Position numbers and translations under genes: made by a program | Shown here: positions 12,152-45,070 of the stretch, one piece after another | Numbering within the stretch: position 1 is the first letter of the stretch | Layout: each line of letters starts with the position of its first letter | Source of the DNA: PVC group bacterium | GTDB lineage: Bacteria; Omnitrophota; Gorgyraeia; B26-G9 | Direction: 5' to 3' | Length of the DNA: 64,000 nucleotides | Assembly (NCBI GenBank): GCA_024231215.1 | Contig: JAAEQR010000195.1 | Location: 433,349-497,348, forward strand | The notes under the pieces: generated by a model | Database searches by the model: none | Told to the model about the DNA's origin: nothing | What the model saw: only the letters and a program-made list of their open reading frames with translations

Positions 12152-12201
12152 CACCTGCGCAAAAATTGTCGCGATGCGGCGAAAAATACGCATATTTTGC
12201 G
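12152..12201 (+). repeat. 50-bp direct repeat, copy 1 (cacctgcgcaaaaattgtcgcgatgcggcgaaaaatacgcatattttgcg)
   Basis: Identical to 17221..17270. Contains the inverted repeat TGCGCAAAA-N30-TTTTGCGCA. Begins 22 nt after the stop of the NtrC-family gene. Confidence 0.9.
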
Positions 12202-12231: not shown

Positions 12232-12260
12232 TTGTAATTTTAAAAGACATAATGTATACT
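12232..12260 (+). promoter_or_regulatory. candidate sigma-70-like promoter (TTGTAA-N17-TATACT) upstream of the SecA-like gene
   Basis: -35/-10-like hexamers with a 17-nt spacer, ~95 nt upstream of the TTG start at 12355. Sequence match only. Confidence 0.3.
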
Positions 12261-12354: not shown

Positions 12355-15300
12355 TTGCAGTTAGAAGGTTGGCGAAAATTGAAGAGTATTAAACATCTGA
12401 TCATATTTTTTCTTATAAACACGATTATTTTATCAAACATCCCGCCAGTATTTGCTGAAAAAGCTTATAGCGTTTGTCTTTCCCCCGTTGTAACAATTAA
12501 CACTCCTGCGTTGAAATACAATTTTTCTCAGCTTGAGCTTGGCCGCTTACTAGAAACAACACAGTTAAATATTGAAGTAAATGGATTTATCAGAGATTTG
12601 TTTGGTAAAAATAGTAAGAATTTTGTGAATGCTACATTCAAAGGATTTAAAGTTGATTTGATCTCAGGGAGGGGATATCCTGTCGCAGATGAAATTGTTC
12701 CATTTAGATTGGATGATCATGGATATGTTCATCTGACCGAAAGCATGGCTCAACTGATTCAGGATCATCCGGATAGAGAAGAAATTTTATTTGAAATCGG
12801 AGTGCATTATACTCTTAAACTTAATTATAAAGTACTTGCGCAACATCATCCAAATAGCAAACATTATACACAACACAAGTTCAACCTTTTGTTAATTAGA
12901 GCTTTGCCAGATAATAGCGAAAGGGCGATTATTGGTAACTACCTTCCCATTATTTCTAATGGAGCTATTCAGCCAATTGATAGTTTGTTAGGTATTAGGG
13001 ATTATGTCGGTAATGATGACGTAGTATCCCATCATCTTGCATTATTATTCGAACGATATGCTCGCAGGAGACGTATTGGTTATCGAAAACCTGGAAGTTA
13101 TGAAGTGGTAAAAGGCAAAGAAACTTATATGGATTACTTTTATAATACTAAGCATGGTTTAAGTTTTCTGAGTGTTCCCGGGAAACTATCCGCGTTTTTA
13201 ATGTCTTTACAGATTAACGAAAATAATGTATCTGTCGGCCGCTATGATATATCAATAAATGATGTTAATAAAAATTTAAGATCTAATCTAGCCGGTGAAA
13301 ACATGCTTTTTGCTGCGGGGTCACTTTGCATGCACAATAATATGGAACGTTATAGAATAGAAGCGACGGTTCCCTTACTTACGAATGCGTTAGGCGATTT
13401 TAGAAATGATCCTCTGGTTGCCGGATTTTTAGCCTCAGTTACCGGAGATTTTGATATGTATTTTGTTAGGGATTTAATCGAAAAATTTAAAGGAGCCGAC
13501 CTTATTCAAATTGTCTATCAACTTCAAAGGCTTAGAAGAAAGGTAAGAAATGATTCTGATAAAGATTGGGATTTAAGTGAAAGTAAGCAATTTCATAGAA
13601 CTGTTGAACATGTTATGCGGACTTATTCGAAAAAAAATGTTTCCATGATTTTAGATAGTTTTGAAAAACTGGGAGATATATACAACTTGGTGAATGAATC
13701 ATATCGTCCGATGCATAAAGTAATGCCGATTCTCATCTTTATGACAGAGCTGATTTCACGAAGTGAAGATCCTTTAAGAGAAGTTATTGATCCATTACAT
13801 AGTTTTATTTCTACAGTCTCTCCGGCGCAGATTCTTGCTTGTTTGCCTCTTGTTGAAGGCACAGGAACCTTTGGTCTGGCACGTTTGCAAAGCTTAATAC
13901 AGAGATTCGGAAAATTTAATATTAATATCGCGGCTTTAGATATTGTCCCATGGATGAAATTAGCATATGTCGAGTATATTCTGAATCATAGCTCGGATCC
14001 AGAGCATGACTTAAAGCATCTAAATGTTTATCTAAGACATCAAATAGTTCAGAGGGATAGAGAAAACCTTATTCTTGATAATATGAAAAAACTCTATGAA
14101 ATTTATGACTTGCGGCGCGCTCATCATGCTTTATTTAATAATTTGGATCTCCAGTTTACGCCGGGCGAGATTATTGCTGTGGCAAATAAAAAACTAACTG
14201 CGGGGATGGAAAGAGACGGTTCTTATGTGCCATCCATACGGAATATTCGTCATGACCTAGATCAGAGAGGGAATTATAATTGGAATTCTGAGCGGGGAGA
14301 TGATATTGAATTATTGATCTATGGGCTTAACCATTTAAATGCTTCTGACGGGACGCTTATTGCTTTTCAAAAATACGAAAAGATTTTAATTCAATCTTTA
14401 ATTGCTCTAAAATTTGTTGTTGCTCAGGAAGAGTTATTGTTAAAACTTAGAGATCAATTGTTCCAAGTTATGGTTCGTTTTCTTTGCTTGAATAACGAAA
14501 CGGTAGATCCGCTTATCTTGCTCGGATATTTAAATACGATAAGCGAGCATATGAATTACGCTACCGCGGAATCTTTAATTAAGTTTTTAGATAAAATAGT
14601 TTCAAATGGGGATGTTGCTGGTCTGGATAGATTGTTGGAAGAATTAGCTTACTCTGCCGACTGTATGCCTGCCAGAGAAGCAAAGGCAATTATTCGTCAG
14701 TATATTAGTGAGGTTGAGGAGGGTGGAGTGCAGCAAACACTTACCAGATTGATTGCATTACGTGTTGAGTATGAACAGAAGAGATTCCCTGAGGAGGAGC
14801 AATCAATATCAAACATGGTGGCTCAGATTAAAGGCTTGCCTGCTACAGACCAGAAAAGACTAGAGGATGAAATACAAACAGTACTAGGTCACGAAAAAAC
14901 AATAATAAAGATGAGCGATTCTGAGATTAAAAAAAGAGTCAAAGCACTTAAGATTCAAGTGCAAAGAAAAGAGGTGCTTTTTGAGGATGTTAAGCTTTTA
15001 TATTTGGCCTATATCAGAGAGATTGCTAAAAGAAAATACGGGATGAGAGCTTACAATATCCAATTAGCCGCGGTCCTTCTTTTCTTTTATGAGGGAGATT
15101 TTAATAAAAGGGGGTTGGTTCAAGAAATTAAGACAGGTGAGGGCAAATCGCTAATTTTTGCCTTAACAAATAGTTTAGCTGCTTTGACGGGCAAACCAGT
15201 GGATGTTTTTACGGTAAATACATATCTTGCCGCTCGTGATGCCGAACAATTTAAAGTTTTGTATAATTTTTTAGGATTAACTGTTGCCTATTTAAAAGAC

Positions 15301-17193
15301 AATCAAGATGAGGGGCTAGTCGCAGTTAATGAACAATCTTTTGCCGCGGATATTGTCTATGGAACGAATTCCAATTTTGAGTATATATACCTCCTGGAAT
15401 GTATTAGTCAACAACCTATACGTGCGAAAGATGTCGCTGGCAAAACAAAACGGCGGGAATTTGCCATGGCTGTTGTTGATGAGGTCGATATGTTGTTTTT
15501 GGATGAAGCGCTTAATACACATACGATAGCCCGGCCTGATAATATTTTTCCGACTTGGCCGTTCAAGCCGATCTGGAAATTCTTCAATGAATTGGTTCTC
15601 AATATTGATTATAAGGCTGAAGGCCTAACTAATAGAGGAAAAATAAAATATTCTGAGTTCATAGGGCAGTTATACAAGAAAGAAGGAAAAGGGAAGGAGC
15701 TATTATCCGAGAGTCAATTAAAAAGATTCGCTCAATCCGCCCTAATTGCACTGCGTTTAAGAAAAAATCAGGATTATGTTGTAAAAGAAGCAATCAAGAG
15801 GCGTCCTGAAAGAACGATTTGGAGCGGGAAACGTAAGGCTCAAGATGAAGTGATTATTGTTGTGCAAGAAACAGGTCGAAAACACTTCGGCTCATTGTGG
15901 TATGACGGGATTCATCAGTTTGTCGAGTTAAAAGAAGGGATGAAACCAAGTCTAATGAATCGATCGATAGCCTCAATTACACGTCCTTTTTATTTTAGTA
16001 AGTATGAGAAACTATTTGCGCTTACTGGGACGATTGGATCCGAGACAGATGCCTGGGAATTGCAAAAGATATATGGAGTAAATTCGCTTTGTCTTCCTCC
16101 ACATAAGCATTCAAAGCGTGAAGACAGAGAAGATTTAATCCTGGATACATTAGAGCAAAAATGGACAGAAGTTATCCAAAGCATTCAAGCCGAACATAAT
16201 AAAGGACGACCTGTGTTAGTAGGAGTGAGAACGATAGAGCAGTCTGTTAAACTTCACCGGAAACTTGAAGAGGAAACAAGGATTGATGCCCAGCTTTTAA
16301 ATGGAGAGCAAGGCACTCCGGAAGCGCAGATTATAAAGCAGGCAGGTTTAAGCGGAACGGTAACGATTGCCACCAATTTGGCGGGACGAGGAACAGATAT
16401 ACTTCTCGGTAAAGGTGTCGAAGCGCGGGCTGGTTTGCATGTTATTGGAACGGAGCGTTTTAGATCCAGGCGAATTGATGACCAGTTAAAAGGAAGAGCG
16501 GGTAGGCAGGGGCAGCCGGGAAGTTCTCAATTCATTATCTCTCTTGAGGACGAGGCATATCGCAGCTATTTAGATCAGGAGAAGTTAAGGAAACAGCAAG
16601 ATCATGCTAAGAGAAAACAGGCTGTACAGGATGTTCAAGAAAAATTAGATGTTGCTTCTTTTGAAAGGCGGGTTAGGGTTTTCCGCATTTGCTCTATTCA
16701 GGATAGGCAAATGACGGATTTTTTCAATGAGATAGAGCGTCTTTTTAATATGAAGAGAATAGATAAAATTTTCCCGGAAATTATTCCGGAGTATAATCGA
16801 CCATCTCTGCTTGGAACTGATGAAAGAGCTTCTATATTTACAATAGTAGAGGCAGGGGATGTGTGTTTTGAGGGCTGGATAGCTCATTTGCAGTTATTGG
16901 AAGAGTTGAGGAAAGCACTTGAATTTGAATCATCTGAAACCTTTGAGTCTGGTCTAGAAATATATCAGGAACAGGCGGAAAAAAGTTTTAAGAATGTTAT
17001 GAATGAATTACGGGAAAAGGTATATCTATTATATGCGGAGTTATCGGGGTTGGATCAAGTTGAAGTTGTCAAAAGGGGCAATGATTTTGAACAAACTGGC
17101 GTTACTCCGACACAAAAGCCTTTAATTGATGGAATGGAACTATTCCAAGTAGAAAATCAAATAATTGCGGCTATGCTTGAGCAAGCAGTTTAA
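12355..17193 (+). CDS. N-terminally extended SecA paralog (SecA2-like preprotein translocase ATPase fused to an ~880-aa unknown N-terminal region)
   Basis: From residue ~890 the SecA motor is collinear with E. coli SecA. NBD1: GMRAYNIQL and Walker A KTGEGKSL, VNTYLAARDAEQF…FLGLTV, DIVYGTN, VVDEVDMLFLDEA. PPXD: DYVVKE…VIIVVQETGRKHFGSLWYDGIHQFVELKEG…SITRPFYFSKYEKLFALTGT. NBD2: RPVLVG…TIATNLAGRGTDILLG, LHVIGTERFRSRRIDDQLKGRAGRQGQPGSS. A shortened helical scaffold follows, with no Zn-finger tail. TTG start; an alternative TTG at 12379 gives MKSIKHLIIFFLINTIILSNIPPVFA|EK, a signal/anchor-like segment. Confidence 0.8.
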   Translation: MQLEGWRKLKSIKHLIIFFLINTIILSNIPPVFAEKAYSVCLSPVVTINTPALKYNFSQLELGRLLETTQLNIEVNGFIRDLFGKNSKNFVNATFKGFKVDLISGRGYPVADEIVPFRLDDHGYVHLTESMAQLIQDHPDREEILFEIGVHYTLKLNYKVLAQHHPNSKHYTQHKFNLLLIRALPDNSERAIIGNYLPIISNGAIQPIDSLLGIRDYVGNDDVVSHHLALLFERYARRRRIGYRKPGSYEVVKGKETYMDYFYNTKHGLSFLSVPGKLSAFLMSLQINENNVSVGRYDISINDVNKNLRSNLAGENMLFAAGSLCMHNNMERYRIEATVPLLTNALGDFRNDPLVAGFLASVTGDFDMYFVRDLIEKFKGADLIQIVYQLQRLRRKVRNDSDKDWDLSESKQFHRTVEHVMRTYSKKNVSMILDSFEKLGDIYNLVNESYRPMHKVMPILIFMTELISRSEDPLREVIDPLHSFISTVSPAQILACLPLVEGTGTFGLARLQSLIQRFGKFNINIAALDIVPWMKLAYVEYILNHSSDPEHDLKHLNVYLRHQIVQRDRENLILDNMKKLYEIYDLRRAHHALFNNLDLQFTPGEIIAVANKKLTAGMERDGSYVPSIRNIRHDLDQRGNYNWNSERGDDIELLIYGLNHLNASDGTLIAFQKYEKILIQSLIALKFVVAQEELLLKLRDQLFQVMVRFLCLNNETVDPLILLGYLNTISEHMNYATAESLIKFLDKIVSNGDVAGLDRLLEELAYSADCMPAREAKAIIRQYISEVEEGGVQQTLTRLIALRVEYEQKRFPEEEQSISNMVAQIKGLPATDQKRLEDEIQTVLGHEKTIIKMSDSEIKKRVKALKIQVQRKEVLFEDVKLLYLAYIREIAKRKYGMRAYNIQLAAVLLFFYEGDFNKRGLVQEIKTGEGKSLIFALTNSLAALTGKPVDVFTVNTYLAARDAEQFKVLYNFLGLTVAYLKDNQDEGLVAVNEQSFAADIVYGTNSNFEYIYLLECISQQPIRAKDVAGKTKRREFAMAVVDEVDMLFLDEALNTHTIARPDNIFPTWPFKPIWKFFNELVLNIDYKAEGLTNRGKIKYSEFIGQLYKKEGKGKELLSESQLKRFAQSALIALRLRKNQDYVVKEAIKRRPERTIWSGKRKAQDEVIIVVQETGRKHFGSLWYDGIHQFVELKEGMKPSLMNRSIASITRPFYFSKYEKLFALTGTIGSETDAWELQKIYGVNSLCLPPHKHSKREDREDLILDTLEQKWTEVIQSIQAEHNKGRPVLVGVRTIEQSVKLHRKLEEETRIDAQLLNGEQGTPEAQIIKQAGLSGTVTIATNLAGRGTDILLGKGVEARAGLHVIGTERFRSRRIDDQLKGRAGRQGQPGSSQFIISLEDEAYRSYLDQEKLRKQQDHAKRKQAVQDVQEKLDVASFERRVRVFRICSIQDRQMTDFFNEIERLFNMKRIDKIFPEIIPEYNRPSLLGTDERASIFTIVEAGDVCFEGWIAHLQLLEELRKALEFESSETFESGLEIYQEQAEKSFKNVMNELREKVYLLYAELSGLDQVEVVKRGNDFEQTGVTPTQKPLIDGMELFQVENQIIAAMLEQAV

Positions 17194-17220: not shown

Positions 17221-17270
17221 CACCTGCGCAAAAATTGTCGCGATGCGGCGAAAAATACGCATATTTTGCG
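17221..17270 (+). repeat. 50-bp direct repeat, copy 2 (candidate enhancer/UAS or REP-like element)
   Basis: Perfect copy of 12152..12201. Lies 27 nt after the SecA-like stop and ~100-150 nt upstream of the sigma-54 promoter at 17370. Confidence 0.9.
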
Positions 17271-17369: not shown

Positions 17370-17385
17370 TGGCATGATATTTGCT
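17370..17385 (+). promoter_or_regulatory. sigma-54 (RpoN) -24/-12 promoter of the giant gene
   Basis: TGGCATGATATTTGCT matches the consensus TGGCACG-N4-TTGCW with correct GG/GC spacing. An RBS (aaggagt) and the ATG at 17430 follow ~45 nt downstream. Confidence 0.65.
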
Positions 17386-17429: not shown

Positions 17430-20400
17430 ATGAAGAGACTAATAACGATTGGATTGATTCTGAGTATCTGGTGTTTTAGCGCAATTTTGGTGTATGCCGG
17501 AGATGGGGATTTTGCTATATACCGGGAAGCTACAGGTGGGGAAGCTTCAACCGCAACCGCTGCTGATGTTACTTGGGATACTACGGTAAGTGCTGATGCT
17601 ACTTTTTCAATTAGTGCTAACACTTCTGTGGATCTTTCTGAGGGAGGTCATTATTTTGTTATGTACAATATTGGCTGGTTGGGGTCTGGTGGAAACAGGC
17701 GTTCTGAGCAACAGATGTGGCTTAATTTAGCTGGAAGTGAAATTGTCTGGGGGCGCTCAACGGGATATATACGTCGGTCAAATGCAATGGAGGCCTGGCA
17801 ATTTGGTGCAGCGATTATTAATGCGAATGCTGGTGATGATCTAAAAATAGTTGAACAGCGTACTGATACTTATCCAACTATGGTAACAAATAGAATTGCG
17901 AATTCCAGCAGTTTAATGGTTTTAAAATTAAATGATAATTGGGATTATGCTCGGATTAGTGAAGCTGGCGGGGGGCAAGCTTTTAGTAGTACTACTGCTA
18001 CTGCTGTTACTTGGGATACCAATGATGAATTAGATACCGGCTCATTTACTCATACCGGAGATACTGATCAGATTACATTAAAAACAGCAGGACATTATCT
18101 AGTTACAGCAAATATTGAAATGCTAACTTCGGGGACATCCAGAACTGCTGGTAGTATGTATTTGTCTTTAGATGGGACTGAAATTGATGGCACAAGGACA
18201 ACAAGTTATATTAGAGGAACAGATGGTACAAATAATAACACTGCTGTTTTTTCTGGAATAATTGAGACTTCATCTGCAGACCAAGTTTTACGAGTAATGA
18301 TGTATGAGAAAACTGGATCTAATCCGACAATTGTTGCTAATAAAGCCGGTATTACTATTGTAAAATTACCAGACACTGCTGATTATGTCCGTTTAGTTAA
18401 AACTACTACTCAGGCAGTTGACGGTACCGATGACCCGATTACTTGGGATTCCCAGGTTGAGCTGGATACTGGTAGCTTTGGTAATTCTTCAAATCTAGTT
18501 ACTTTTACTCAGGATTCTGATTATCTTTTCCTGGCTACTTTTTGGGCTGATGGCACAACGAATAATAGTCGTAATTATCCTCATTGGGAGTGGCGAAAAA
18601 GCGGTACAAAAATCCAATATGGTTCGGGTGGTAAATATAGCCGTGGTACTGGCAGTGCTGAGGCCGGAAATAGTTTAGGCTTAATTGCGCATGGTATTAC
18701 TACCAGTAATAATATTGATATTGTTAACACCGATGAAACTAACAAAGATGATGCCGAAAGACTTTTTCAGGCCAATAGAATGGCTTTGCAGGCAATTAAT
18801 ATGAAAGCTTTTTTACCTCCGGTAATTACCGATGCTGCTGATGAGGTTTTTTATAATACTGAAACTTCGGTTACAATTACCGGGGACAGATTCCGGACGA
18901 CTAAGGGAACTGGAAAATTAGAACTCTGTGATTCTGCAACCTATGCTACAGCTAATAAGATCGAGCAAACTACTACAGCTTGGGGAAATACTTCGATTGA
19001 TTTCACAGTAAATCGTTCTACTTTAGCCGAAGGGACTTTGTATCTATTTATTACTAATGATGATGGTCAGATTACCGGAGGCTATTCTGTCGAAGTATAT
19101 GATTTGCCGGCTATTACAAATGTCAGCCCATCAACATTTGTGGACACTGATACGGGGATTGATATTACCGGTTCAAATTTTAATGCTGCTCAAGGATCAG
19201 GAATTGTTGAATTAGGGAATGCTGCTACATATGCAGGATCTACGACAAAAGTCAGTCAAACTGTTACTGGTTGGGCAGAAGGCTCAATTACTTTTACTGC
19301 TGTTCAAGGAGCTCTTGGTGGTGGTGATGTTTACGTTTATGTTACTGATGATTATGGACATGTTTCGAGTGGGTATCAGGTTAAGTTAGCGGCAAATCCT
19401 TTAATTACAGATATTGATGATGAAGTTTTTTATGATGGGGAAACTTCAGTTACCATAATCGGAGATGCTTTTTATGCAGCAAAAGGAACCGGTAAAGTTG
19501 AATTAGCTGACTCGGCGACTTATGCAACTGCTAACAAAGTCGAGCAAACTACTACTAGCTGGGGCAATAGTTCAATTGATTTTACAGTTAACCGCAGTAC
19601 TCTTTCTGAAGGCTCTTTATATGTTTTTGTTACTAATGATGACGCTTTGACTTCAGCCGGATATGCTGTTTATGTATATGATTTACCAAGTATATCAGGT
19701 GTTGATCCTACATCATTCATGGATAGTGATACAGGGATTGATATTAGTGGAGCTGATTTTGGCGCCTCTCAAGGTACCGGAATTTTAGAAATAGGAGATG
19801 CCGCAACTTATGCTGCATGTGTAACAAAAGTCAGTCAAACAGTTACTAGCTGGGCAGATGATACGATTACTTTTACTGCGGTGCAGGGAGCTTTAACTCC
19901 GGGTACAGTATATTTGTATGTTACGGATGATAATGGCCATGTTTCAGCTGCTCAATCAGCTACTTTAACTGTGCCGCCGCCGCCGTCTATTACTTTAGTT
20001 GACCCGGCGGGATTTACAAATAATGATCCTGGTATTGAAATCACGGGAAGTTATTTTGACGCATCTCAAGGTACGGGAAAAGTCGAATTAGGAGATGCTT
20101 CCACATATGGATCTTGTACTATTTTAGAAGAACAGACAATAACTTCCTGGGCTTCGGATACGATTACTTTTACTGCAGTAAGAGGAGCGCTTACTCCGGG
20201 CGGTGTTTATCTTTATGTTACTAATGATGATTCAGATACCTCTACCGGAACTTCAGTTAATATCGCGGCAGAACCAATTCCTGAGGGGACAAAACTGGGA
20301 GCTTATCAGGCTGCTGGAAGTGCTAGTGGTACGACTTCACGTAGTAGATATATGGCAATGACTTCTCCGGATATTGATAATATTCGAATTATTAAATTTG

Positions 20401-23400
20401 GGCATAAAAGCAATGTTGCTGGTTCAATGCGCATGGGGTTATATGTGGGTGGAGCAATTGGGAATCCGGATAATGCAACATTGGCAGCTGATTCCGGTCA
20501 AGTTACTCATGATGGGGGCGGGAGTTGGCAGGAATTTGACCTTACAACTCCTTACGATTTAGCGAAAAATACACAATACGGGGTGGCTTGGAAAACTGAC
20601 GGAGCATCTTATTATTTTGATAATACTTCATTAGGAAATTTAGAGGATTGCGATCAATACTGGGAGAATCTTACTAATGAGCCGGCTAATTCAACAAATG
20701 CTTTTCAAGGTACACTAAATGTAGCTTCTACCTATGACTATACATATTTACATTATATTGTTTATGTGCGTTATCCTACGCTTAGTTCTGTTTCCGAGAC
20801 TTATATTGATGATGGAGATCTGGCGATCCAGGTCAATGGGGTGGGTTTTGAGGATGATAATGAGTTTGGTAATAGTGCAAATAAGATTTATTTAGGTGAT
20901 GCGGCTACTTATGCGGCATGTTCGACTTTAGTTGAGCAGACATTCACAGCCTGGGCAGATGCTCAGATCACTTTTAATGTATCAAAAGGTGATTTGAGTG
21001 ATGGTACAGTTTATGTCTATGTAATAAATGATAATAGCCAGGTCAGTGATAATGGACAATCAGTTATTTTAGATGTTAATACTCCGACTAATCCGACAGC
21101 TCCGGCTTCGGGATGGGATGTTAGCGGTAAGACAAATGCTTTAACTAATAATACCTGGGGAGGTCATGCTTCGGCTTATTTTGAATGGACCGGGGCTGAT
21201 GATAGTGGAGGTAGTGGGGTTAGCGGATATTCAGTTTATTGGGGCACGGATTCCGGCGGAGAACCTGGAGTAACGCAAGATCAGGCGGGGAGCTCCTATG
21301 ATGCCGGAGCAATTTTATTCGATGGTATTTATTATTTAAGGGTAAGAACTTTTGATAATATTGGGAAATTTAGTGAGCCGATAACATTATTTACTTATAA
21401 ATATGATAAGACTGATCCAGTTAATCCAACATCTCCATCCGGGGCTTGGTATACATCTTCAAAAATAGATTCCTTAATAGATGATACTTGGCAAAATGAT
21501 GATGAAACTCCGTATTTTGAATGGTCCGGGGCAACTGATGCAACCAGCGGAGTTAGTGGATATTCAGTTTATTGGGGAACTGCAATAGATGGGGAACCTG
21601 GATTAATACAAGAACAGGTAGTTACAACTTTGGGAGAAGTTTCGGCTACTGGCGATAATACGTATTATTTAAGGATAAGAACATTTGATTTTGCGGGAAA
21701 TTATTCGGATATAGTAAACTTATTTACGTGTAAATTTGATAATACTGTTCCAGCAAATCCGACAGCTCCGGCTTTGGCTTGGGATTCCTCAGGTAAATCA
21801 ACTGGTCTTACTGATAATACTGTCCAAAACATTGATGATACTCCATATTTTGAATGGTCTGGGGCAACTGATGCAACTAGCGGAGTTAGTGGATATTCAG
21901 TTTATTGGGGCATAGCTATAGATGGCGAGCCGGAAATTACTCAGGAGCAAACTGCTATTAGTTATGATATTAGTACTCCTACCGGGGATGCTACTTATTA
22001 TTTAAGAGTGAGGACTTTTGATAATGCAACAAATTATAGTGATGCGATAACTGTCTTTACCTTTATATATGATAGCCAAAAGCCTACAGTGCTTATTGAA
22101 GTCAGTCCAGATCCAACCGGATCAATTCCTTCTGGCAGCTTAGAATTTAAATTAACTTTTTCAGAAACCATGGATATCGGAACAACTCCAACAATAACAT
22201 ATGATCCTAGCGGTGCTACCGGAGTGCAATCTGTTTCCACCGGCGGCAGTTGGTCAACTACTACTTATTCTAATGATACATATACTGTTTATAATGATAA
22301 TGCAATTACTTCTACAACTGGTGATGGAGTAGCGACAATTAGTGTTACTCAAGCCAAAGATCCAGCAGATAATACTATGGATGCAGATACTGACGATTCT
22401 TTTGATATTGATAGTGCTATGCATCATTTTAGAGTTGAGCATGATGGCTCAGGATTGATCAATGTTGCTGAACTCCTAACGATCACTGCAGTAACCCAGG
22501 GGGGGAATACTGCGATTGATTATACTGGAACAATTACTGTTAGTACTCAAGGTGAAACTGCGCAAATTAGCTGGGATGTAAATACCGGAACAAACGCTAT
22601 TAATGATGGCGGGGCGGGAAATGATTCAGCAACCTATTTATTTGATGCAGCAGATAATGGAGTAGTTGTTTTGGAGATGATCTCTACTGCTCCGGATACC
22701 TTAGATATTGAAGTAGATGATACTACTTATACCGATGATGATACCGAAGGTAATATTGTAATTTCAAGTTATGCTTTAGATCATTTTGTTATATCTCATG
22801 ATAATTCAGGAGAAGCTGGGGTTGGGGAGAATGTTACGGTTACTGCGATCAATACCGAAAGTCAAACTAAAACAGATTATGTTGGAACAATAACTTTGGA
22901 TACAACGGGAACATCCACTGCAATTGGCTGGTCATTATCATCAGGCAACGGAATATTTAATGATGGTGGTGGAGCAAGTGATACTGCAACTTATAATTTT
23001 AATATTAATGATAATGGGGTGGCGACATTTATTTTTACCGGGACAAAAGTAGAAACCTTGGATATTGATGTTGCTGATGGGGCAGAAACTGATGATGAAT
23101 CAGAGGGAACAATGGCTATAAGTCCTTCAGCGATTGATCATTTTGATATTACTCATGATAATAGTGCAGTAGCTGGGGGCGCAGAGAATGTTACGATCAC
23201 AGCAAAAGATGCTTATGAAAATATTAAAACTAATTTTACCGGGACAGTGACTTTGGATACTGATGGAGATGTTAATGCTGTTTCCTGGGCTGAGGATGCG
23301 GGTAATCAGGGGACTTTTAATGATGGTGGTTCTGGGGTTGCTTCAGCGACATATACTTTTGCCTTAGCTGATAACGGTACAGCTGATTTTACTATCACTG

Positions 23401-26400
23401 ATACAAAAACTGAAAGTATTGATATTGATGTTAGCGGATCAGGGAAATATGATAGCGACGAAGAAGGGCTTTTGCTTGTTACTCCCGGGAGTATTAATTA
23501 TTTTATTATTGTGCATGATAATAGTGCTGCGGCTGGAGTTGCCGAAGGCTTAACAGTTACTTCATATGATCAATACGATAATATTAAAACTGACTATACT
23601 GGCGAGATTACTTTAGATACTGATGGAACTGCAACTTCTATTACTTGGGCTTTAGATACTGGGAATGGAATTTTTGCTGATGGGGGTGGTTTATTAGATA
23701 CAGCAACGTATACTTATGATGCAGCTGATAGTGGTGTTGCAACTTTTACTATTACTGATACGACTCAAGAATCTTTGGATATTGATATCTCAGGCGATGC
23801 TAATGACAATGATTCTGAGGGCAATTTAATTGTTGGACTACCAGTTATTTCTTATTTTGTTGTTTTGCATGATGGAGCGGCTAATGCCGGAGTAACTGAG
23901 AATGTTACTGTAACAGCAAAAGATTCTTTAGGTGCGACAATGACATCATATGTTGGTCAGATACAGCTGGATACAAATGGAACAGCAACAACAATAGTTT
24001 GGGCTTTAGATACTGGTGATGGGACATTTAATGATGGCGGAGCAAGTGTCGATACAGCACTTTATACTTATGATGCAGCTGATAATGGAGTAGCTGTATT
24101 TTCAATAATTGATAATACGCAGGAAACAATTAATATTGCAGTAACCGGAGATGGTAAGACTGATAATAATACTGAAGGCAACTTAATTGTGGGAGTTCCT
24201 TTATTAAGTCATTTTACTATATCTCATGATGGGAATGCTGACGCCGGAGTAGATGAAAATGTTACGGTTACTGCTAAAGATACTGTTGACAGTACTAAAA
24301 CTGATTATACCGGACAAATAACCTTAGATACTAATGGTACTTCTGGAACAATAACTTGGGCTTTAGATACGGGGAATGGAACTTTTAATGATGGTGGGGC
24401 ATTAGTTGATACTGCAACATATAATTATACGGGCAGTGATAATGGGGTTGCTATTTTTACAATCAATGATACAACTGCAGAAAGTTTGGATATTGATGTT
24501 TCAAGCGGCGGTATAGTTGATGATGAGACTGAGGGGAATTTAATTGTTGCTACCGGGGCTTTAGATTACTTTTTGATTGAGCATGATAATGCTGCAGTAA
24601 TAAATATTTCTGAATTAGTTATAGTAACTCCGCGGGATAGCCAGAATAATATAATCACTGATTATACCGGACAAATAACTTTAGATACTAATACTTCCAG
24701 CCCATCCGGCATAACCTGGACATTGCTTTCTGGGAATGGTTCTTTTGTTGATGGAGGAGGTTCTGTTGATACTGCAACATATACATATGCTTTAGCTGAT
24801 TCGGGAACAGCAAGTTTTAGTATTAAGAGTTCAAGCCTTGAAACTATAAATTTAGCAGTAAGCGGGGATGGGGAGAATGATGATAATACTGAAGGAAACT
24901 TAGTTGTTGGTAATGCTGCAGAGCTAACCTGGGGTATGGTTGATGCTGTTCAGGCATATGCGACTACTACTACTAGTGGTCGTATGATCTCGGGATATTC
25001 TCCCAATATCTCTAATATGATAATAACAAAACTTGCTAGCCATCATGGATCAACCGGAAGTACCAGAATTGGATGCTGGACTGGAGGAGTTAGCGGAGAT
25101 CCTACCGGAGCAACTCTTTTAGTTCAAACCGGTAATGAAACAGTATCAAGTACAGGGTGGGCTGAACATGATGTAACAGATACTCCGTGGCCGAAAAATA
25201 CCCGGACTTGGAGCGGATATGCTTTAAGTGGAGCAGCTATTAGTTATGCTAATAATGGAGCGTATAACGAGGATTATGATGAAAGCCATGGCCGTACACA
25301 TCAACCTGCAGGATTGAGTACTAATCCGGCAACTGCACATCAGAATATTACCGGAGATGGAGCAGAAGCGGCTTTTTGGTATTATATGCATGTTATGTAT
25401 ACAATTGAGCCAGGAGTAAACGCGATAAGTAATAGTGTTATCTCTAGCAGTGTTGATGTTGGCAGCAGTGATAAAATAATTTTGGATTTATCTTTAACTA
25501 ATGATTCGGTAACAGCGGATACTATTACAGCGGTTACTATTAATAATGTAGGTACTGCATCAGATTCTGATATCTCATCAGTAAAACTCTATTATGATAG
25601 TAATAATTCCGAAGATTATTCTCCGGGAGCAGATACTCAGGTTGGTTCTGGAGTATTCTCATCCGGTACAAAAACTTTCTCCAATCTAAGTATAAATATT
25701 GATGCTAATCTGGGCACTGAGGAATTATTTGTTGTTGTAGATATTTCCAATAGTGCCACTCCAGGAAATACTATTGATGTAGCTATTCCGGCTAATGGTA
25801 TTACTTTATCTGGAACTGGAACAATAGAGGATGCAGCGCTTAATTCATCAGGAAATAGAAGTATAGTTATGTTACTGGATCATTTTACTATAAGCCATGA
25901 TACTGCTGGGTTAGCTGGTTCTGATGAAAGTATTACAATTATGGCAAAAGATTCTTATGGGAATACAAAAATTGACTATACCGGAACTATAAATATAGAT
26001 ACTACCGGAACAGCAGGCTCTATTGCTTGGGCTCTGTCCTCTGGGTCGGGAGTATTTAATGATGACGGAGCAAGTGTTGATACTTGTGATTATACTTTTA
26101 GCGGGGCGGATAATGGGGTTGTTGTTCTAAGCTTAAATGATACGATATCTGAAACCTTGAATATTTCAGTATCTGGAGACACTAAAACTGATGATAATAC
26201 TGAAGGAGATTTAGTAATTTCTCCAGCGCCAATACATCACTTTGTTATTGGTCATGATAATACGGCTGAGGCGGGGATAGGAGAAAGCATTACTGTTACG
26301 GCTAAAGATGAATTTGAAAATACCTTAGTTGATTATTCTTCTCAGATAACTTTAGATACTAATGGTTCTTTAGATAGTATTAGTTGGACTTTAAGCTCAG

Positions 26401-29400
26401 GATTTGGCAGTTTTGCGGATGGCGGAGGGAGTGTTGATACTGCTACTTATACTTTTGATGAAACCGATGACGGGGTTGCGACATTTACCATGACTGATAC
26501 AATATCTGAAACTATTAATATTTCAGTCAGTGGTGATACTAAAACCGATGATAATACCGAAGGTGATTTAGTTGTTTCTGCCGGAACAATTGATTATTTT
26601 GTTATTAGTCATGATGAGGTAGCTAATGCTGGAATTGCGGAAACAATTACCATAACTGCTAAGGATTCTTTAGGAAATACAAAAGCTGACTATATTGGAA
26701 CTATTACTATAGATACTAATGGAACTGTCAATACCATTACCTGGTCTGATCCAGGTGGGAATAATGGAGTTTTTACTGAAGGCGGAGCAAGCGTAGATAC
26801 TGCAACTTATGAATATGCAGCGGATGATAATGGAGAAGTAACTTTAAATATCACTGATACAAAAACTGAAGGCTTAGATATTTCAGTAACCGGTGACACC
26901 AAAACTGATGATGATACTGAAGGAGATTTGACGATTAATCCGGGAGTTATTGATTATTTTATTGTATCGCATGATGGTACTGCTGTTACTGGAATTTCTG
27001 AGGATCTGATTGTTACTGCATATGATGCTGAAGATAATATAAAAACTGATTATACTGGTACGATTACTTTAGATACTAATGGTACTTCTACGGCAATAAC
27101 CTGGACATTGAAAAACGGCAGTGGAACTTTGGATGATGACGGTTCAAATTATGATACTGCAGATTATACTTTTAATAGTAGTGATTTAGGGACGGCTACT
27201 TTTGGTATTATTGATTTTGCTGCAGAAACGATTAATGTTGATGTAACTGGCGATGCTAAAACGGATGATGATACTGAAGGAAACCTACAGTTTATTTCTT
27301 CGGGCATCGATCACTTCTTAATTGTTCATGATGGGGATGCGATCGCTGGTATTGCTGAAAACATAACAATATATGCAAAAGATGCTAATGAAGATACGAT
27401 CACGACTTATCAAGGGCAGATAACTATTAATACTGATGGTTCAGCAACAGGAATTGGCTGGGCATTAAACACCGGAAGCGGTTCATTTGTTGATGGAGGG
27501 GGAACTGTTGATACTGCTACTTATACATTTGATCCAACAGACAATGGCGTGGTTATTCTGGAATTAACGGATACTGTAGAAGAAACTATTGATATTTCTA
27601 TAGTGGGAGAAGGTAAAAATGATGATGATACTGAAGGAGTCTTAGAAGTTAATCCTGCGGGCATGCATCATTTTAATATAGTGCATGATGGTAATGCTCA
27701 AGCTGGAATTGCTGATTCGATAACTATTCAGGTCCATGATGCTAATCATAATACAGTAACTGATTATACTGGGGAAATCACAGTTTATACAAATGGTACA
27801 GCAACTGCGATTACTTGGGCAAAGCAAACAGGATCGGGTTCTTTTAGTGAGGGCGGACCGACGGTGGATACTGCTACATATACATTTGTATTCCAAGATA
27901 ATGGCGTTTGTGTTTTGACTCTGGCTGATACTAAGGTGGAAACATTGAATATTGGTGTTTCCGGTGGTGGAAAACTTGATGATGATACTGAAGGTGCTTT
28001 AGTAGTGGGACCCGGACTTATTGATCAATTTGTTATTACTCATGATGGCGGAGCAATAGCTGGTATTTCAGATAATGTTACTATCCGGGCAGAAGATGCA
28101 TATGCAAATTTAAAAACTGATTATACGGGAATGATTACAGTTGATACAAACGGAACAGTGGATACTATTGTTTGGGCAAAAGTAGTTGGTAATGGAACTT
28201 TCCTTGATGGCGGAGCCAGTGTAGATACTGCTACTTATACTTTTGATGCTACTGATAGTGGGCAATGTACACTTAGTGTTTCTGACACAATAGCGGAAAG
28301 TCTCAATGTATCTGTTTCTGGGGATGCTAAAGTCGATGATGATACTGAAGGTGATCTTGTTGTTACTGCGACATCATTAGACCATTTTGTGGTTAGTCAT
28401 GATAATACAGCAGAGGCGGCAGTAGCAGAAAGTATTACTATTACTGCTTATGATATCTATGAAAATGTTAAGGAAAACTATACTGGACAAATAACTGTTG
28501 ATACCAGTGGTACAGCTAATGCCATTACTTGGGGATTATCGGTGGGTAATGGAACTTTTCTTGATGGCGGAGCCAGTGTAGATACTGCTACTTATACATA
28601 TGCAGATTCTGATGATGGAGTAGTTATTTTAACTATTTCCGATACAGTTGCCCAAAGTATTGATGTTGATTGTTCCGGGGATGCTAAAACTGATGATGAT
28701 ACCGAAGGAAATTTAGTTGTCGGAGCAACAGTAATTAATTATTTTAAAGTCAATCATGATGAGTTAGCAAGTGCGGGAGTCGCAGAAAATGTAACAATAA
28801 CTGCATATGACACTTATGATAATGCTAAAACAAATTATACAGGGACAATCACAGTAGATACTGATGGTTCCGCAGATGCTATTACCTGGGCAAAAATCAC
28901 CGGAGGCGGTTCATTTGTTGATGGTGGAGGTGCTGTAGATACAGCTACATATACTTATGTGGCTGGTGATTTAGGAGTGGTTGTCTTGAGCATCACAGCT
29001 AATGCTGCGGAAAGTTTAGATATAGATATTACCGGTAGCTCTAAATCCGATGATGATACTGATAATGCTTTGGTTGTAAGTGCTTCAACTCTTGAAGATT
29101 TCCTTATAAGCCATGATGGGCAGGGGGTTGTAAATTCTGGAGAGCCGATAACTATTACTGCTCGTGATGCTTATCAAAATACAAAGTTAGATTATACAGG
29201 AGAAATTTCAGTTTCTGTTAGTGGAGAAACTGGAGAAATAACCTGGGCAGTTGCAAACGGAGCAGGTTCATTTGCCGATGGTGGTCAATATACTGATACT
29301 GCTAATTATACTTTTCATTCTAATGATGAGGGAGTAGTAATCTTAACTCTTACTGATGATGAGGCAGATACGGTTAATATTGCTGTTAGCGGTGGAGGTA

Positions 29401-32400
29401 AGGCTGATGAAAATAGTGAAGGGACTTTAAGTTTTACTTCAAGTTATATTGTTATTGATAATTTAGATTCCGGTTATACGGAAAATGCTACAGATAATGA
29501 CTGGACAACTCAAACAGCTGGAAATGAATACAGTTCAGATTGGCGACGGGATACAACTTTTAATGATGGTGACTGGGCTCGTTGGACTCCAGATATTGAC
29601 TTAAATGGTAACTATGAAGTATTTGCTTATTGGTCAAGTAATGGTGCAGCAAATGCTACGGATGCTCCATATACTATATATTATAATGGCGGCAATGATA
29701 CAGTTGATAAAAACCAGGAAGTTGCGGGAAATATGTGGAATACTTTAGGGACTTATGAATTCATTTCAGGTACTAGCGGCTATGTTCAGTTAGATGATTC
29801 AGCTAATGATGATCTAAGTGCAGATGCAATAAAATTTGAGCTTCGTGGAAGTGCTAATGCTAGTGCCAATAGTGTAACAACTGATGCGGTAGAAGCTGGA
29901 GAATCAGATATTTTGATTTTGGATTTTACAGTTACTAATAATTATACAGAAAACGATACAGTAAATTCTATTACAATGAATAATAATGGCACTGTAAGTG
30001 ACTCAGATATTATTTCTATCAAACTTTTTTATGATAGCAATAATTCATATGATTATAGTCCGGGAGTAGATAGCCAAATAGGTACAGGAACATTTTCGTC
30101 TGGCACAAAAACATTTAGCGGGTTAAATATTACTGTTCCAGGTGCTGGGACTAAGGATTTCTTTGTGGTTTTAGCAATAGATTCTGATGTTGCTCAGGAT
30201 GTAACTTTGGATGTTCAGATTCCAATAGATGGAATTACGTTGGCTAATGCTCCTGAGGTGGAGGATTCGATCATTAACTCTAGTGGAACAAGAACAGTAT
30301 CCTTGGTGCTTGATTATTTTGTAATTGCTCATGATAATGCAGCTAATGCTGGAACTTCAGAGGATATTACGGTTACTGCCAAAGACCAATATGGCAATAC
30401 AGTTACATCTTATGAAGGAACAATAACTTTAGATACCAATGGAACTGTAAATACGATCACCTGGGCTCTTGATACAGGCAATGGTTCTTTTGATGATGGC
30501 GGAGCTTTGGCGGATACTGCGACTTATACTTTTAATAATAGTGATAATGGAATAGCTGTATTTACAATTAATGATACAAAAACTGAAACAATTAATATTG
30601 CTGTTTCTGGAAGCGGAAAGAGTGATGAGAATAATGAAGGGGATTTGGTTGTATCAGCTGGAACTTTAGCTCATTTTGATGTGGATATTGACAATAGTGC
30701 TATTGTCGGTTTGGCTGACTTAGTTACAGTTACTGCTCATGATGTAAATCACAATATAATTGAAAATTATACAGGAACAATAACCCTAGATACTAATGGT
30801 ACAGAAGATACGATTACCTGGGGGCTTAATTCTGGGTTTGGAAATTTTACTGATAATGGAGTTTTAGTAGATACTGCGACTTATGAATTTGATTCTTCAG
30901 ATAATTCCACAGTTGTATTTTTAATAACTGATACTATGGCTGAAACAATTAATATTGCAGTCAGTGGAGATGGACAACAGGATTATGATGATGAAGGGAA
31001 TTTAGTTTTTCAAACAGGAAGCATTGACCATTTTCTCATTGCTCATGATGGAAGTGCCCAGGCTGGGGTAGTAGATAATATTACGATCACAGCTAAAGAT
31101 GCATATGAAAATACTTTGGTTAACTATACCGGACAAATAACAGTGGATACAGATGGTACTGCAGCGACAATCGAATGGGCAAAAGTTACCGGAAACGGCA
31201 CTTTTAATGACGGCGGGTTAAGTGTAGATACTGCTACATATACTTATAATTCTTCAGATAATGGGGTGGTTGTATTATCAATAAAAGATACAACATTAGA
31301 AAGTTTGAATATTGCTGTTTCTGGGGATGGTAAGAGTGATGATGATACTGAAGGACTGATTAGTATAGGAACTGGAGTGATTGATCATTTTGCTATAAGC
31401 CATGATGGTTTCGCGATGCAGAACCAGACTGAGGATATTACAATTAAAGCCTATGATGCTTATAATAATATAAAAACAGATTATACCGGAGAGATAACCG
31501 TAGATACTGATGGTTCGGGTGATATTACCTGGGCATTGGATACCGGTGGGGGAGTTTTTAATGACGGGGGCGGGGGAGATGATACTGCGACTTATACTTA
31601 TGTCGGGGGTGATAGTGGAGAAGTAGTTTTATCAATTACTGATTTGTCAGCGGAAATTATAAATATTTCTGTAAGCGGGGATACAAAGACAGATGATGAT
31701 AATGAAGGGGTTTTAGAAGTTGTTGCAGCTGGATTTCATCATTTCAAGATTACGCATGATGGTAATGCTGTGACTGGAGTAGCGGAACAGATTACAATTA
31801 CCGCCAAAGATGTGAGTGATGATACGGTAACAAATTATGCTGGTACAATGACCGTAGATACAAATGGAACTGCTACAGCTATAGCCTGGGGTTTAGATAC
31901 TGGTAATGGTACATTTAATGATGACGGGGCGGGAGTGGATACAGCAGATTATACGTTTAATGCATCAGATAATGGTGTAGTAATCCTGACGCTTACTGAT
32001 ACAAATCAGGAAACAATAAATATTTCTGCTTCCGGAAGCGGTAAGACGGACGATAATACAGAGGGTAGTTTAGTTATTAATCTGGCTGGTATTGATCATT
32101 TTATAATATCTCATGACGGAGCTGCATTTGCTGGTATGGCAGATGATGTTAATATTACCGCAAAAGATGCGAATAGTGCGACGGTTACTAGTTATACAGG
32201 TACGATTACTATAGACACAAGCGGGACTTCGGGAACAATCACTTGGGCACTGGTAACCGGTGATGGTTCTTTTAATGATGGAGGAGCAGCTGTAGATACG
32301 GCGGATTATACATTTGTTTCCGGAGATAATGGTGTTGTTACGCTGAGTATAAATGATACGACCGCGGAAACTCTAAATATTTCTGTGAGCGGTGATGGGA

Positions 32401-35400
32401 AAACAGATGACAATACTGAGGGAAATATGATTATAAGTCATTCTGTGATTGATTATTTTGCTGTTTTGCATGATGGAGAAGCTGAGGCCGGAGTGGCAGA
32501 AGAAATCACAATAGAAGCAAAGGATGAATATGGTAATACATTAGTTGATTATACGAGTCAAATCACGGTTGATACTAATGGAACTCCGGGTACTATTACT
32601 TGGGGGAAGACTACCGGAGACGGGGTTTTTAATAACGGTGGAGCAGGTGTTGATACAGCAACTTATACCTTTGCTGCATCTGATGACGGAGTGGTGGTAT
32701 TGAATATTACAGATACTACAGTAGAAACTTTAAATATTTCTGTAAGTGGTGACAGTAAAACAGATAATGATACTGAAGGCGATTTGAACGTAGGTTCCGG
32801 AGCTTTAGAAGAATTTATAATTTCGCATGATGGTACAGCAGTTGCCGGGACCCAGGAAGCAATTACAGTTACTGCATATGATACTTATAGCAATATCAAA
32901 ACGAATTATACCGGACAGATAACTTTAGATACTAATGGTACCCAAGCTGCAATAAGCTGGGCTTTAAGCTCCGGGGTAGGAACGTTTAATGACGGTGGAG
33001 CAAGTGTGGATACAGCTACATATACTTTTGTCTCGGCTGATAATGGTACAGCTACGTTTATGATCACTGATACAAAAGCAGAAACCATTGATGTGAATGT
33101 AAGCGGTAGCGGAAAATTTGATGATGATTCAGAAGGGACCTTAGTTGTTTCTCCGGCAGTACTCAATGATTTTAAAATATCTCATGATGCTCAGGCAATA
33201 GCGGGTACATCGGAAAATATTACTATTTATGCTAAAGATTCCTATGGGAATACAAAGACTGATTATACCGGACAAATAATCGTGGATACAAACGGTACAG
33301 AAACTACGATTACCTGGGCATTAGTTACCGGTAACGGTACTTTCAATGATGATGGAGCAAGTGTAGATACAGCTGATTATACATTTGACGCAAATGATAA
33401 TGGGGAAGTAATATTGTCCATAAATGATACAACAGCGGAAGTAATAAATATATCGGTAAGTGGTAATAGTAAATTTGATGATGATACCGAAGGTAACTTA
33501 ACTGTAAATTCTGCGGTGATTGATTGCTTTGTAATCGTGCATGACGGTTCTGCGGTGCAATCTGTAGGAGAACTAATAACTGTTACAGCTAAAGATCAAT
33601 ATGCGAATAGTAAGGCTGATTATACCGGGACTATAACTTTAGATACTAATGGTGATGCGAATAATATCGCATGGGCATTGAACACAGGATCCGGGGTTTT
33701 TAATGATGGTGGTGCATCAGTGGATACTGCTACTTATGCTTATGTATCCGGGGATAGCGGGGTGGCTTTATTTGAAATTACGGATAATACAGCCCAGACA
33801 ATTAATATTTCCGTAAGCGGGGACGGTCAAACAGATGATGATACAGAAGGAAACCTGGTAGTACAGGCTTCTTCGACTACGGTTAGCGGGAGTGCAAATA
33901 CACTTACTTCTTATTATGTTCCTTCTGCGGTCAGCGGCAAATTAGTGCTTGATGTTACTTTGACCAATAATGATGTCCTTAGTACTGATACTTTAGAGAG
34001 TATTACGATAAATAATGTCGGAACGATTATGGACAGCCAGGTTAATTTGGTTAAATTATATTATGATAGTAATAATTCTAGTAGCTATACTCCGGGGGTG
34101 GATAATGAAATTGGGTCCGGAACTTTTTCAGGAGGAAGTATTACGTTTAATAATGTGAATGTTCAATTATCTGAGGCTGGAACAGAAGAGATATTTGTGA
34201 CTATTGATTTAAAAGCTGGCGTTAGTAACGGAGTAACTGTTGATGCTAGTATTCCTGTGGATGGTATGAATTTTGCCAATGCACCTGATTCTGAAAGTAT
34301 AATTCTTAATTCTTCCGGAAACTTGACTGTAGATTCCGCAACTCCGGGGGAAGTAACCAATTTGGCTACATCAAGCCATAACAATGCTACCAGTGCCTGG
34401 GATGATCCTCAGTCAAGAGATGATACGGTTTATGTGAGCTGGACCCCGGCTTTAGACAGTGGTAGTGGTATTGACGGTTATTCAATTCTTTGGGATACAA
34501 GTCCAACTACTTTACCGGATACAACCCAGGAGATAGAAGAAAGTATTACGGCTCAGACCAGTGCTGAATTGGCTGTGGGGAATGCCCACTATTTTCACAT
34601 TAGGAGTATAGACAAGGTAGGGAATTGGGATGATCAAGCAGCGCATATAGGACCTTTTTATATTGATACGACTTCTCCTGTTTCCACATCTATTTATCAG
34701 ATTACAGAATACGCTGGAGGAGATTATCTTTATGTGAGTGGTAATACAGTTTATTATTCCGGAGTTGGGTATTCTGCGTTTCGTGTTTTTGTGGAAGCAG
34801 CAGATGGTATATCTGCTCTTAAAGAAGCTGTATTTCCAACTACTACAAGTGCCGGAGGCACCGATGCAACAGAAGAAAGCGGTGCTTACGAATATATATA
34901 TACATATGAAGTAACCGCTGCCGGGAACAGCTATAATGATGTAAATGTTGCAGTATCTGATGTTGCGGGAAATACGACTAATGTTTCGTTTAGTGTGGTA
35001 TTGGATGAAACATCTCCGGCGACAGTAGCTTCTTTGAGTTCAAGTACACATACTCCAAGTGTTACTTCGGCTGATAATGATGTTACTTTGAACTGGACAG
35101 ATGCGAGTGATGCTGCAGCAGGTTTAGCCGGATATAGTATAGTTATAGATACAGCCTCAGACACATTGCCTCCACAATATAAAAATGTTAACAACGGGGT
35201 GGAGACATATATAGAAAGCGATCTTGATAACGGAACCTATTATGCTCATATCCGTCCGGTGGATAATGTGGGTAATTGGACGGCAAGCGCGACTCATGCC
35301 GGACCCTATATTGTTGGTCGCGGTTCTCTTGATGCATCTATTGCTGCTTCTCAGGCTGTGGTTAGTACGGATCAACAGTTTATGGTAACTATGACTGTTG

Positions 35401-42240: not shown

Positions 42241-42241
42241 G

Positions 42242-45032: not shown

Positions 45033-45070
45033 TTTTCCCCTTATCGACTTTTGCCCCTAAACTCAACAAA

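Follow-up and report, generated by a model that had tools for sequence, protein, structure and literature searches.

A divergent, predicted membrane-associated SecA-family ATPase encoded directly upstream of a giant protein gene in an Omnitrophota bacterium

The gene at positions 12355-17193 of the stretch analysed here (64,000 nucleotides of the PVC group bacterium contig JAAEQR010000195.1, contig positions 433,349 to 497,348; Omnitrophota; below called the window) is predicted from its sequence to encode a membrane-associated, catalytically competent and highly divergent translocation ATPase of the SecA family. It can be seen as a stand-alone equivalent, acting 'in trans', of those SecA-like domains which are embedded in giant Omnitrophota proteins. 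The gene directly precedes an open reading frame (ORF) for a protein of 6,807 aa, and a dedicated role in the export of this neighbour is plausible because of the adjacency of the two genes, an exact sequence element shared by both, the intact ATPase with its clamp and finger architecture, and published fusions in cis. We assign a probability of about 50% to the reading that the product is a membrane-tethered SecA-family motor dedicated to the giant protein.

The mechanical ORF has the extent given in an earlier note on this DNA made from the letters alone, and the likely coding sequence within it comprises positions 12379-17193. The TTG at 12379 is the likely start since it is preceded at a distance of 10 nt by a Shine-Dalgarno-like AGAAGG and no rival start has a comparable motif: the first 110 codons contain no ATG, and none of the five later in-frame TTG or GTG codons among them has a motif comparable to AGAAGG. 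Furthermore, the NCBI entry MCP4650973.1, annotated as 'hypothetical protein GY853_12975 [PVC group bacterium]', is the identical 1,604-aa product with the same start. The parts of the gene are as follows:

12379..17193, + strand: coding sequence of the SecA-like protein, 1,604 aa plus stop; TTG start, AGAAGG at 12363-12368; same start in MCP4650973.1
12379..12456, + strand: signal-peptide-like N-terminus, residues 1-26; n-region MKSIKH, h-region of ~15 residues, PPVFA followed by EK
12538..13590, + strand: first half of the N-terminal module, residues ~54-404; aligned with the homologues P0122, P0123 and P0124; fold undefined, predicted local distance difference test (pLDDT) below 50 in AlphaFold2
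13591..14850, + strand: second half of the N-terminal module, residues 405-824; all-alpha helical-repeat scaffold continuing into the motor
14851..15507, + strand: nucleotide-binding domain 1 (NBD1); Walker A KTGEGKS at 15130-15150, Walker B/DEVD at 15472-15489; Pfam SecA_DEAD, E 1e-56
15508..15990, + strand: divergent preprotein cross-linking domain (PPXD), residues ~1044-1204; SecA_PP_bind below gathering score; mixed alpha/beta insertion in the AlphaFold2 model
15991..16602, + strand: end of NBD1 and NBD2; LTGT, TIATNLAGRGTDI at 16363-16401, GRAGRQGQPGSS at 16492-16527; Pfam P-loop_SecA, E 1.2e-48
16603..17046, + strand: scaffold and two-helix-finger/IRA1 region, according to AlphaFold2 secondary structure, Foldseek and alignments

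Residues ~825-1556 form a complete SecA-like motor with NBD1, PPXD, NBD2, scaffold helix and two-helix finger. The profile search proposed in the earlier note gave SecA_DEAD at residues 823-1223 and P-loop_SecA at residues 1246-1349, a weak SecA_PP_bind match below the gathering score (1.8e-4, residues 1082-1183; 31.8 bits in the homologue P0123), and no match to SecA_SW (PF07516) or SEC-C (PF02810). The zinc-finger columns are gaps in the alignment, too, in agreement with the C-terminal zinc finger having been reported as absent. The motor core typical of the SecA superfamily, i.e. NBD1 with inserted PPXD, NBD2, Walker A and B and arginine finger, is present, with KTGEGKS at residues 918-924, VVDEVD at 1032-1037, LTGT at 1215-1218, TIATNLAGRGTDI at 1329-1341 and GRAGRQGQPGSS at 1372-1383. 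Judged from these intact ATPase motifs, the motor is predicted to be ATPase-competent. The collinearity with SecA described earlier, with the motifs in the places given, therefore holds, but not its start at residue ~890: homology to the window protein begins at SecA residue ~8-24, so that the canonical N-terminus is internal and the N-terminal extension comprises ~820 aa instead of ~880.

As had been observed before, no recognisable domain was found in this extension; its ~800 aa have no Pfam match, and word-indexed searches and contig scans gave no relatives. An exhaustive phmmer search with the N-terminal region over 1.84 billion representative proteins detected five sequences from four other lineages, the longest having 2,345 aa:

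P0122: 1,964 aa, query region 59-820, E 1.5e-76
P0123: 1,795 aa, query region 86-820, E 6.7e-76
P0124: 2,345 aa, query region 54-822, E 2.5e-32
P0125: 1,520 aa, query region 459-821, E 3.7e-22
P0126: 188 aa (fragment), query region 686-820, E 1.0e-08

These relatives originate from an Omnitrophota metagenome-assembled genome (MAG; P0125), from 'Elusimicrobia' MAGs (P0122, P0123) and from a JGI metagenome. In P0123, P0124 and P0125, SecA_DEAD directly adjoins the C-terminal end of the module, and the remaining motor follows as far as the contig permits; P0122 ends at a contig end immediately before the motor. The overlap of P0122 and P0123 is near-identical by eye, and their protein may thus have ~2,960 aa or more if the two fragments are one gene. 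The extension is therefore not unique; it is shared by P0122-P0126 and, where the junction is reached, always precedes the same motor clade. The conserved homologues also show that it is translated, which the earlier note had left in doubt for the case of a true start near residue 880. Altogether, the comparison defines, at the sequence level, a small family in which a module of ~760 aa is always fused N-terminally to one divergent motor clade. Its signature, present in the window protein, consists of GYVH[LM]T, ILFE[IL][GA]VHY, FLERYA, SFLxxPGxL and C-terminal helical repeats, followed by a motor with QLA[AS]VLLFF. The first half of the module contains GYVHLT (115-120), ILFEIGVHY (136-144), LFERYA (223-228) and SFLSVPGKL (262-270); it has no Pfam or PDB sequence match and a pLDDT below 50 in AlphaFold2. 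The second half is an alpha-helical repeat scaffold.

Several members of the family carry additional regions. In one 'Elusimicrobia' homologue a hydrophobic motif, WAWLNLP[IV]Q.VFGL.LATPVQE.AHILAA.GF, is repeated twice upstream of the module. By eye, the sequence HESHH upstream of the module in P0122 is an HExxH motif, without a Pfam peptidase match, and P0124 shows a weak ChaN/Tiki-like match. The regions with hydrophobic repeat, HExxH and membrane segments are residues ~190-330 and ~1005-1090 of P0122 and ~1560-1620 of P0123.

The three available family motors form one clade with a mean distance of 0.76 to canonical SecAs, compared to 0.45 among canonical SecAs. They were aligned with 59 reference SecAs, and the columns invariant in all 62 sequences, which by definition are kept in the window protein, include Walker A and B and the arginine-finger region. 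Of the 249 columns in which at least 90% of the canonical SecAs agree, 83 differ in all three family motors, many of them by the identical substitution in all three (e.g. GG..LH to [AS]V..FF).

The NCBIfam models of SecA and SecA2 align along most of their length, and the window protein reaches 258-398 bits at cut-offs of 725-1493, i.e. less than half of every single cut-off. The values for the housekeeping SecA models TIGR00963 and NF009538 are 371 and 398 bits (cut-offs 800 and 814). For the SecA2 models TIGR03714, TIGR04397, TIGR04221 and NF012136 they are 342, 364, 276 and 258 bits (cut-offs 930, 1085, 725 and 1100). The closest of 992 SecA matches from 5.8 billion proteins is 36% identical, and the identity to housekeeping SecA is in the range of ~31-36%. 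The order NBD1-PPXD-NBD2-scaffold-finger and the intact ATPase motifs are common to the window motor and housekeeping SecA, but the wing, the zinc finger (SEC-C tail) and the conserved finger tip are missing in the former. These values indicate a divergent SecA paralogue which is not of the housekeeping type, in line with the divergence noted earlier.

The earlier assignment to a SecA2-like, accessory-Sec motor could not be maintained. Every SecA2 model remains below its cut-off, and neither secY2 nor asp1-3 nor a cytoplasmic Gtf was found among the 30 ORFs scanned with Pfam, out of 34 in the window with 150 aa or more; the local lack of SecY2 and Asp genes had already been seen. We therefore rule out membership in the SecA2/accessory-Sec class. 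Similarities do exist. The mycobacterial SecA2 (PDB 4uaq) and the C. difficile SecA2 (6sxh, 6t4h) are among the best PDB matches of the window motor and are likewise second SecA paralogues with a smaller core, without zinc-finger tail and following the logic of a dedicated motor for special substrates. The window protein differs from SecA2 by its ~820-aa N-terminal extension and its hydrophobic N-terminus, and its locus from accessory-Sec loci by nearby transferases which include the GT-C/PMT_2 type instead of cytoplasmic Gtf pairs.

An AlphaFold2 model of residues 405-1604, based on a 64-sequence alignment, had a mean pLDDT of 81 and a predicted template modelling score (pTM) of 0.77. In a Foldseek search of this model against the PDB all top matches were SecA or SecA2 structures (~800 columns aligned, E 5e-38), and the highest TM-scores (0.77-0.78) were obtained with 5eul_A and 6itc_A, both SecY-engaged and substrate-bound. 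The model contains a 47-residue scaffold helix (residues 1409-1455) and two long helices at residues 1483-1556 in the position of the two-helix finger/IRA1. Just ~27 residues link the scaffold helix to the finger helices, and the wing domain is therefore absent. Consequently, of the 'shortened helical scaffold' proposed before, the shortening applies to the wing, which is gone, but not to the long scaffold helix and the two finger helices, which are kept in the model. The failure to detect Pfam SecA_SW would thus overstate the loss, scaffold and finger helices being retained according to the prediction. The Mycobacterium SecA2 is likewise devoid of a wing domain.

The window protein has one single hydrophobic segment, its N-terminus MKSIKHLIIFFLINTIILSNIPPVFA followed by EK (Kyte-Doolittle value 2.07); the signal-peptide-like start described in the earlier note is thus borne out by the hydrophobicity scan. 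Hydrophobic segments are usually found near the module across the family. In P0124 two hydrophobic helices are located ~20 residues before the module (...RVRRATFKALARTRTW-ATSGIVLGVAAGASLIA-PDAGT-VLRVIGIVAAALPLLVAAIGS-NAAGHRR...), and the positive flanks on both sides of this hairpin indicate that module and motor are on the cytoplasmic side. P0122 has hydrophobic segments ~80 residues upstream of the module, P0123 after the motor. The segment of the window protein lies ~30 residues before the module, matching the position of the second helix of P0124, and by homology with P0124 the window motor should be cytoplasmic and tethered.

The direct position of the SecA-like gene 5' of the giant ORF and the presence of a type II secretion system (T2SS)-like cluster and of glycosyltransferases nearby were confirmed by the ORF list and Pfam. 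A spacer of 236 bp containing a promoter and a ribosome-binding site separates the stop codon of the SecA-like gene from the giant ORF. The features of this region that bear on a connection between both genes are:

8761-10731, + strand: sensor histidine kinase (Pfam dCache/HAMP/HisKA/HATPase_c)
10735-12129, + strand: NtrC-type sigma-54 activator/response regulator (Pfam Response_reg, Sigma54_activat 2.7e-71, HTH_8)
12152..12201, + strand: 50-bp element, copy 1; contains the dyad TGCGCAAAA...TTTTGCGCA; candidate regulator-binding site
12232..12260, + strand: weak sigma-70-like promoter candidate, TTGTAA-17-TATACT; consensus match no better than in shuffles
17221..17270, + strand: 50-bp element, copy 2; ~100-150 bp upstream of the sigma-54 promoter, a typical enhancer distance
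17370..17385, + strand: near-consensus sigma-54 promoter TGGCATGATATTTGCT, 1 mismatch to TGGCAC-N5-TTGCW; 45 bp before the ATG of the giant ORF
17430..37853, + strand: giant ORF, 6,807 aa; signal peptide MKRLITIGLILSIWCFSAILVYA followed by GD, T/G/D/S-rich repeats, Golvesin_C, C-terminal beta-propeller

Both copies of the element, which had been noticed before as a pair, are exactly identical, although 0 such matches would be expected by chance, and have no further copy in the window; their likeness extends to 76 nt at 87%. Copy 1 is located 23 bp past the stop codon of the activator gene and 178 bp before the start of the SecA-like gene, and TGGCATGATATTTGCT is the sole site of its kind between the SecA-like and the giant gene. 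The element is a candidate binding site of a single regulator, in the simplest case of the adjacent activator, and would couple both genes, and the SecA-like gene is probably linked to the giant gene in regulation. A perfect 11-bp hairpin, AAAAAUACGCA...UGCGUAUUUUU, at 17251-17277 just past the SecA-like stop codon is missing from copy 1 and may act as a weak terminator (fold z = -3.0). Two more sigma-54-like -24/-12 matches (TGGTACTGAAAATGCT, TGGTACGGGGTTTGCA) are present at 2511-2631, around the start of an unannotated ORF at 2566-3282.

SecA-like domains in the vicinity of giant genes have been described before. Most giant Omnitrophota proteins contain divergent SecA_DEAD and PPXD domains without a scaffold/wing Pfam domain; these domains adjoin membrane segments, their SecA_DEAD sequences form a long-branch clade apart from the normal SecA which these genomes also encode, and T2SS-like clusters and a gene of the rotamase type are found near them (West-Roberts et al. 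2023, bioRxiv 10.1101/2023.11.21.568195). The same authors propose that the SecA-like domains aid the export of the giant proteins. A 2026 preprint reports an architecture cluster with PF07517 that comprises 20 long Omnitrophota proteins, and giant actinobacterial secreted toxins contain SecA-like ATPase domains predicted to facilitate secretion (Kaur, Iyer, Burroughs & Aravind 2021, PMC8195603).

Compared by published description with the 'Archaeovorin' and 'Dockerin-type' giants of West-Roberts et al., the window shares the PVC/Omnitrophota-type genome, SecA_DEAD and PPXD without detectable SecA_SW or other Pfam scaffold/wing domain, a membrane segment beside the SecA-like part, a T2SS/type IV pilus (T4P)-like cluster near the giant gene, a SurA/rotamase-like gene and the proposed role in export. 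In contrast to these giants, in which the domain resides after membrane anchors inside a protein of more than 30,000 aa, the window motor is a separate 1,604-aa gene product, and the giant ORF carries neither a SecA domain nor an anchor beyond its signal peptide. Furthermore, the exhaustive phmmer search detected the ~760-aa module in no more than four other lineages, and none of these proteins is a giant of more than 30,000 aa. The actinobacterial toxins, again compared by description, also have a SecA-like ATPase tied to a very large secreted protein, but belong to a different phylum and carry the domain fused in cis with a major facilitator superfamily transporter and toxin domains. Since SecA-like domains beside giants and T2SS-like loci are already published, the locus is a new variant (split gene, new N-terminal module) and not a new kind of system.

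With a membrane-tethered motor dedicated to the giant protein, export might proceed as follows. The helical module would act as a platform for docking or for holding the substrate, and the motor would apply SecA-like, ATP-driven movements of clamp and finger to the giant 6,807-aa protein. Thereby it would feed the signal-peptide-bearing protein encoded directly downstream, or keep it export-competent, and the neighbouring T2SS-like machinery would then carry it to the surface. The histidine kinase and the NtrC-type activator encoded next to them may control both genes via the common 50-bp element, the response of the giant gene running through its sigma-54 promoter.

Several findings weigh against this reading. 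The N-terminal segment resembles a cleavable Sec signal peptide more than a membrane anchor, as seen from its ~15-residue h-region with two Asn, the PP and the V-F-A at positions -3 to -1, and the charge distribution, +2 on its N-terminal and 0 on its C-terminal side, favours an N-in/C-out orientation, which would place the ATPase on the wrong side. P0125, starting with MGLNQK..., has no hydrophobic segment in its 1,520 aa. The finger-tip motif LRGYxQKDP is lost in the family motors, and with the finger tip and many conserved positions replaced, engagement of SecY is not assured. No sigma-54 -24/-12 element was found before the SecA-like gene, and the hairpin at 17251-17277 overlaps the 3' end of copy 2 of the element, whose function as a regulator site we infer. 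The gene of P0124 is located between rpsB-tsf-pyrH-frr and clpX-clpP-tig, with neither a giant ORF nor a T2SS at a distance of up to 10 kb. P0124 is the sole homologue with readable context, and it gives no sign that the linkage to giant ORFs is conserved. The dedicated motor suggested in the earlier note is thus supported by the physical adjacency and the shared element but not by this one homologue.

This context of P0124 would fit a membrane-associated, SecA-derived motor with another job, e.g. for other substrates, for the assembly of T2SS/pilus-like structures or for the insertion of itself or of partner proteins into the membrane, the adjacency to the giant gene being incidental. The differing extra domains of the homologues (HESHH in P0122, ChaN/Tiki-like in P0124) and the lack of a sigma-54 promoter before the SecA-like gene point in the same direction. 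Against an incidental neighbourhood speak the identical 50-bp elements, which precede both genes and have no other copy in the 64 kb, and the literature, in which divergent SecA-like domains recurrently accompany giant secreted proteins. We consider another job possible, though doubtful.

Alternatively it might be that the protein itself is exported: a cleavable signal peptide would direct it across the inner membrane, and after a T2SS-like exit it would act as an ATP-dependent effector in or on a prey or host cell. The N-terminus has classic features of a signal peptide, Omnitrophota are reported to be predatory or host-dependent with T2SS-like loci beside giant genes, SecA-like helicase-related domains are listed among the effector domains of Amoebophilus (PMC3482391), and Legionella possesses a 998-aa SecA-like protein without SecA_SW (P0055). 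We nevertheless regard such an effector as unlikely, with module and motor of the homologues being either cytoplasmic (hairpin of P0124) or signal-less (P0125), a multidomain ATPase of 180 kDa being an improbable substrate of Sec and T2SS, and no effector-type domain having been detected.

A more speculative idea is that the signal-like N-terminus docks permanently in the lateral gate of SecY and that the tethered motor 'unlocks' and monopolises the translocon for the 6,807-aa substrate, or that the whole motor is delivered to prey as an ATP-driven unfoldase/translocase effector. Either is improbable, and if true would be an action of the SecA family not described so far.

Although no other secA gene lies within the 64-kb window, it is highly improbable that the protein is the housekeeping SecA of the organism with an unusual N-terminal addition, considering its scores below half of every SecA family cut-off, the 83 of 249 changed canonical columns (including finger tip and zinc finger), the occurrence of the family in only 5 lineages among the 1.84 billion representative proteins and the separate normal SecA reported for Omnitrophota genomes with such domains (bioRxiv 10.1101/2023.11.21.568195).

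How proteins of many thousands of residues pass the inner membrane is an open question. The proposals in the literature build on SecA-like domains that form part of proteins of 30,000-150,000 aa, and such proteins are beyond experimental handling. The locus described here shows the same logic in separable parts, namely a 1,604-aa motor, a putative 6,807-aa substrate with a signal peptide, a T2SS-like exporter and a candidate two-component/sigma-54 switch, and the hypothesis of a dedicated motor for giant-protein export thereby becomes testable. It also defines a conserved, unannotated module of ~760 aa travelling with a motor clade, and shows that scaffold and finger helices can persist when Pfam SecA_SW is undetected.

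Besides its signal peptide the giant protein has one weak hydrophobic stretch (residues 2133-2151, Kyte-Doolittle value 1.71) and no strong membrane segment; 23% of its residues are Ser and Thr. Its last ~350 residues match the same propeller families as the product of the BamB/PQQ-type beta-propeller gene which follows at 37975-39108, suggesting a duplication or a shared partner. A SurA-like protein is encoded in the neighbourhood, too, and the downstream genes include the BamB/PQQ-like propeller, two radical-SAM/SPASM genes and genes for TPR proteins and for GT2, GT4 and PMT_2-type glycosyltransferases. The exporter is located as follows:

39381..50118, divergently arranged, no single strand: T2SS/T4P-like cluster (Pfam: secretin, GspM-like, PilM-PilN fusion, ParA/MinD-like ATPase, GspE, GspF, pseudopilins GspJ/K-like)

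In this cluster the PilM-PilN fusion comprises 610 aa, and the ParA/MinD-like ATPase (44064-44831) is encoded beside GspD, GspE, GspF and the pseudopilins. The GT2, the GT4 and two PMT_2-type transferases (GT-C, periplasm-facing), one of the latter fused to TPR repeats, are encoded at 53595-55873 and 57790-61599. The PMT_2 enzymes in the vicinity of a Ser/Thr-rich giant hint at periplasmic O-glycosylation rather than cytoplasmic glycosylation in the style of the accessory-Sec systems.

The Legionella nautarum protein P0055 contains SecA_DEAD, PPXD and P-loop and lacks SecA_SW and SEC-C. It is very distant from the canonical SecAs as well as from the family of the window protein and may be another non-housekeeping derivative of SecA. 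Finally, a gene set at 4990-8798, 50197-51354 and 56503-57687 is reminiscent of peptide-maturation cassettes. It comprises three radical-SAM genes, of which two have SPASM domains, besides genes for an S24-like peptidase and a PF14907 nucleotidyltransferase and a 266-aa ORF without annotation.

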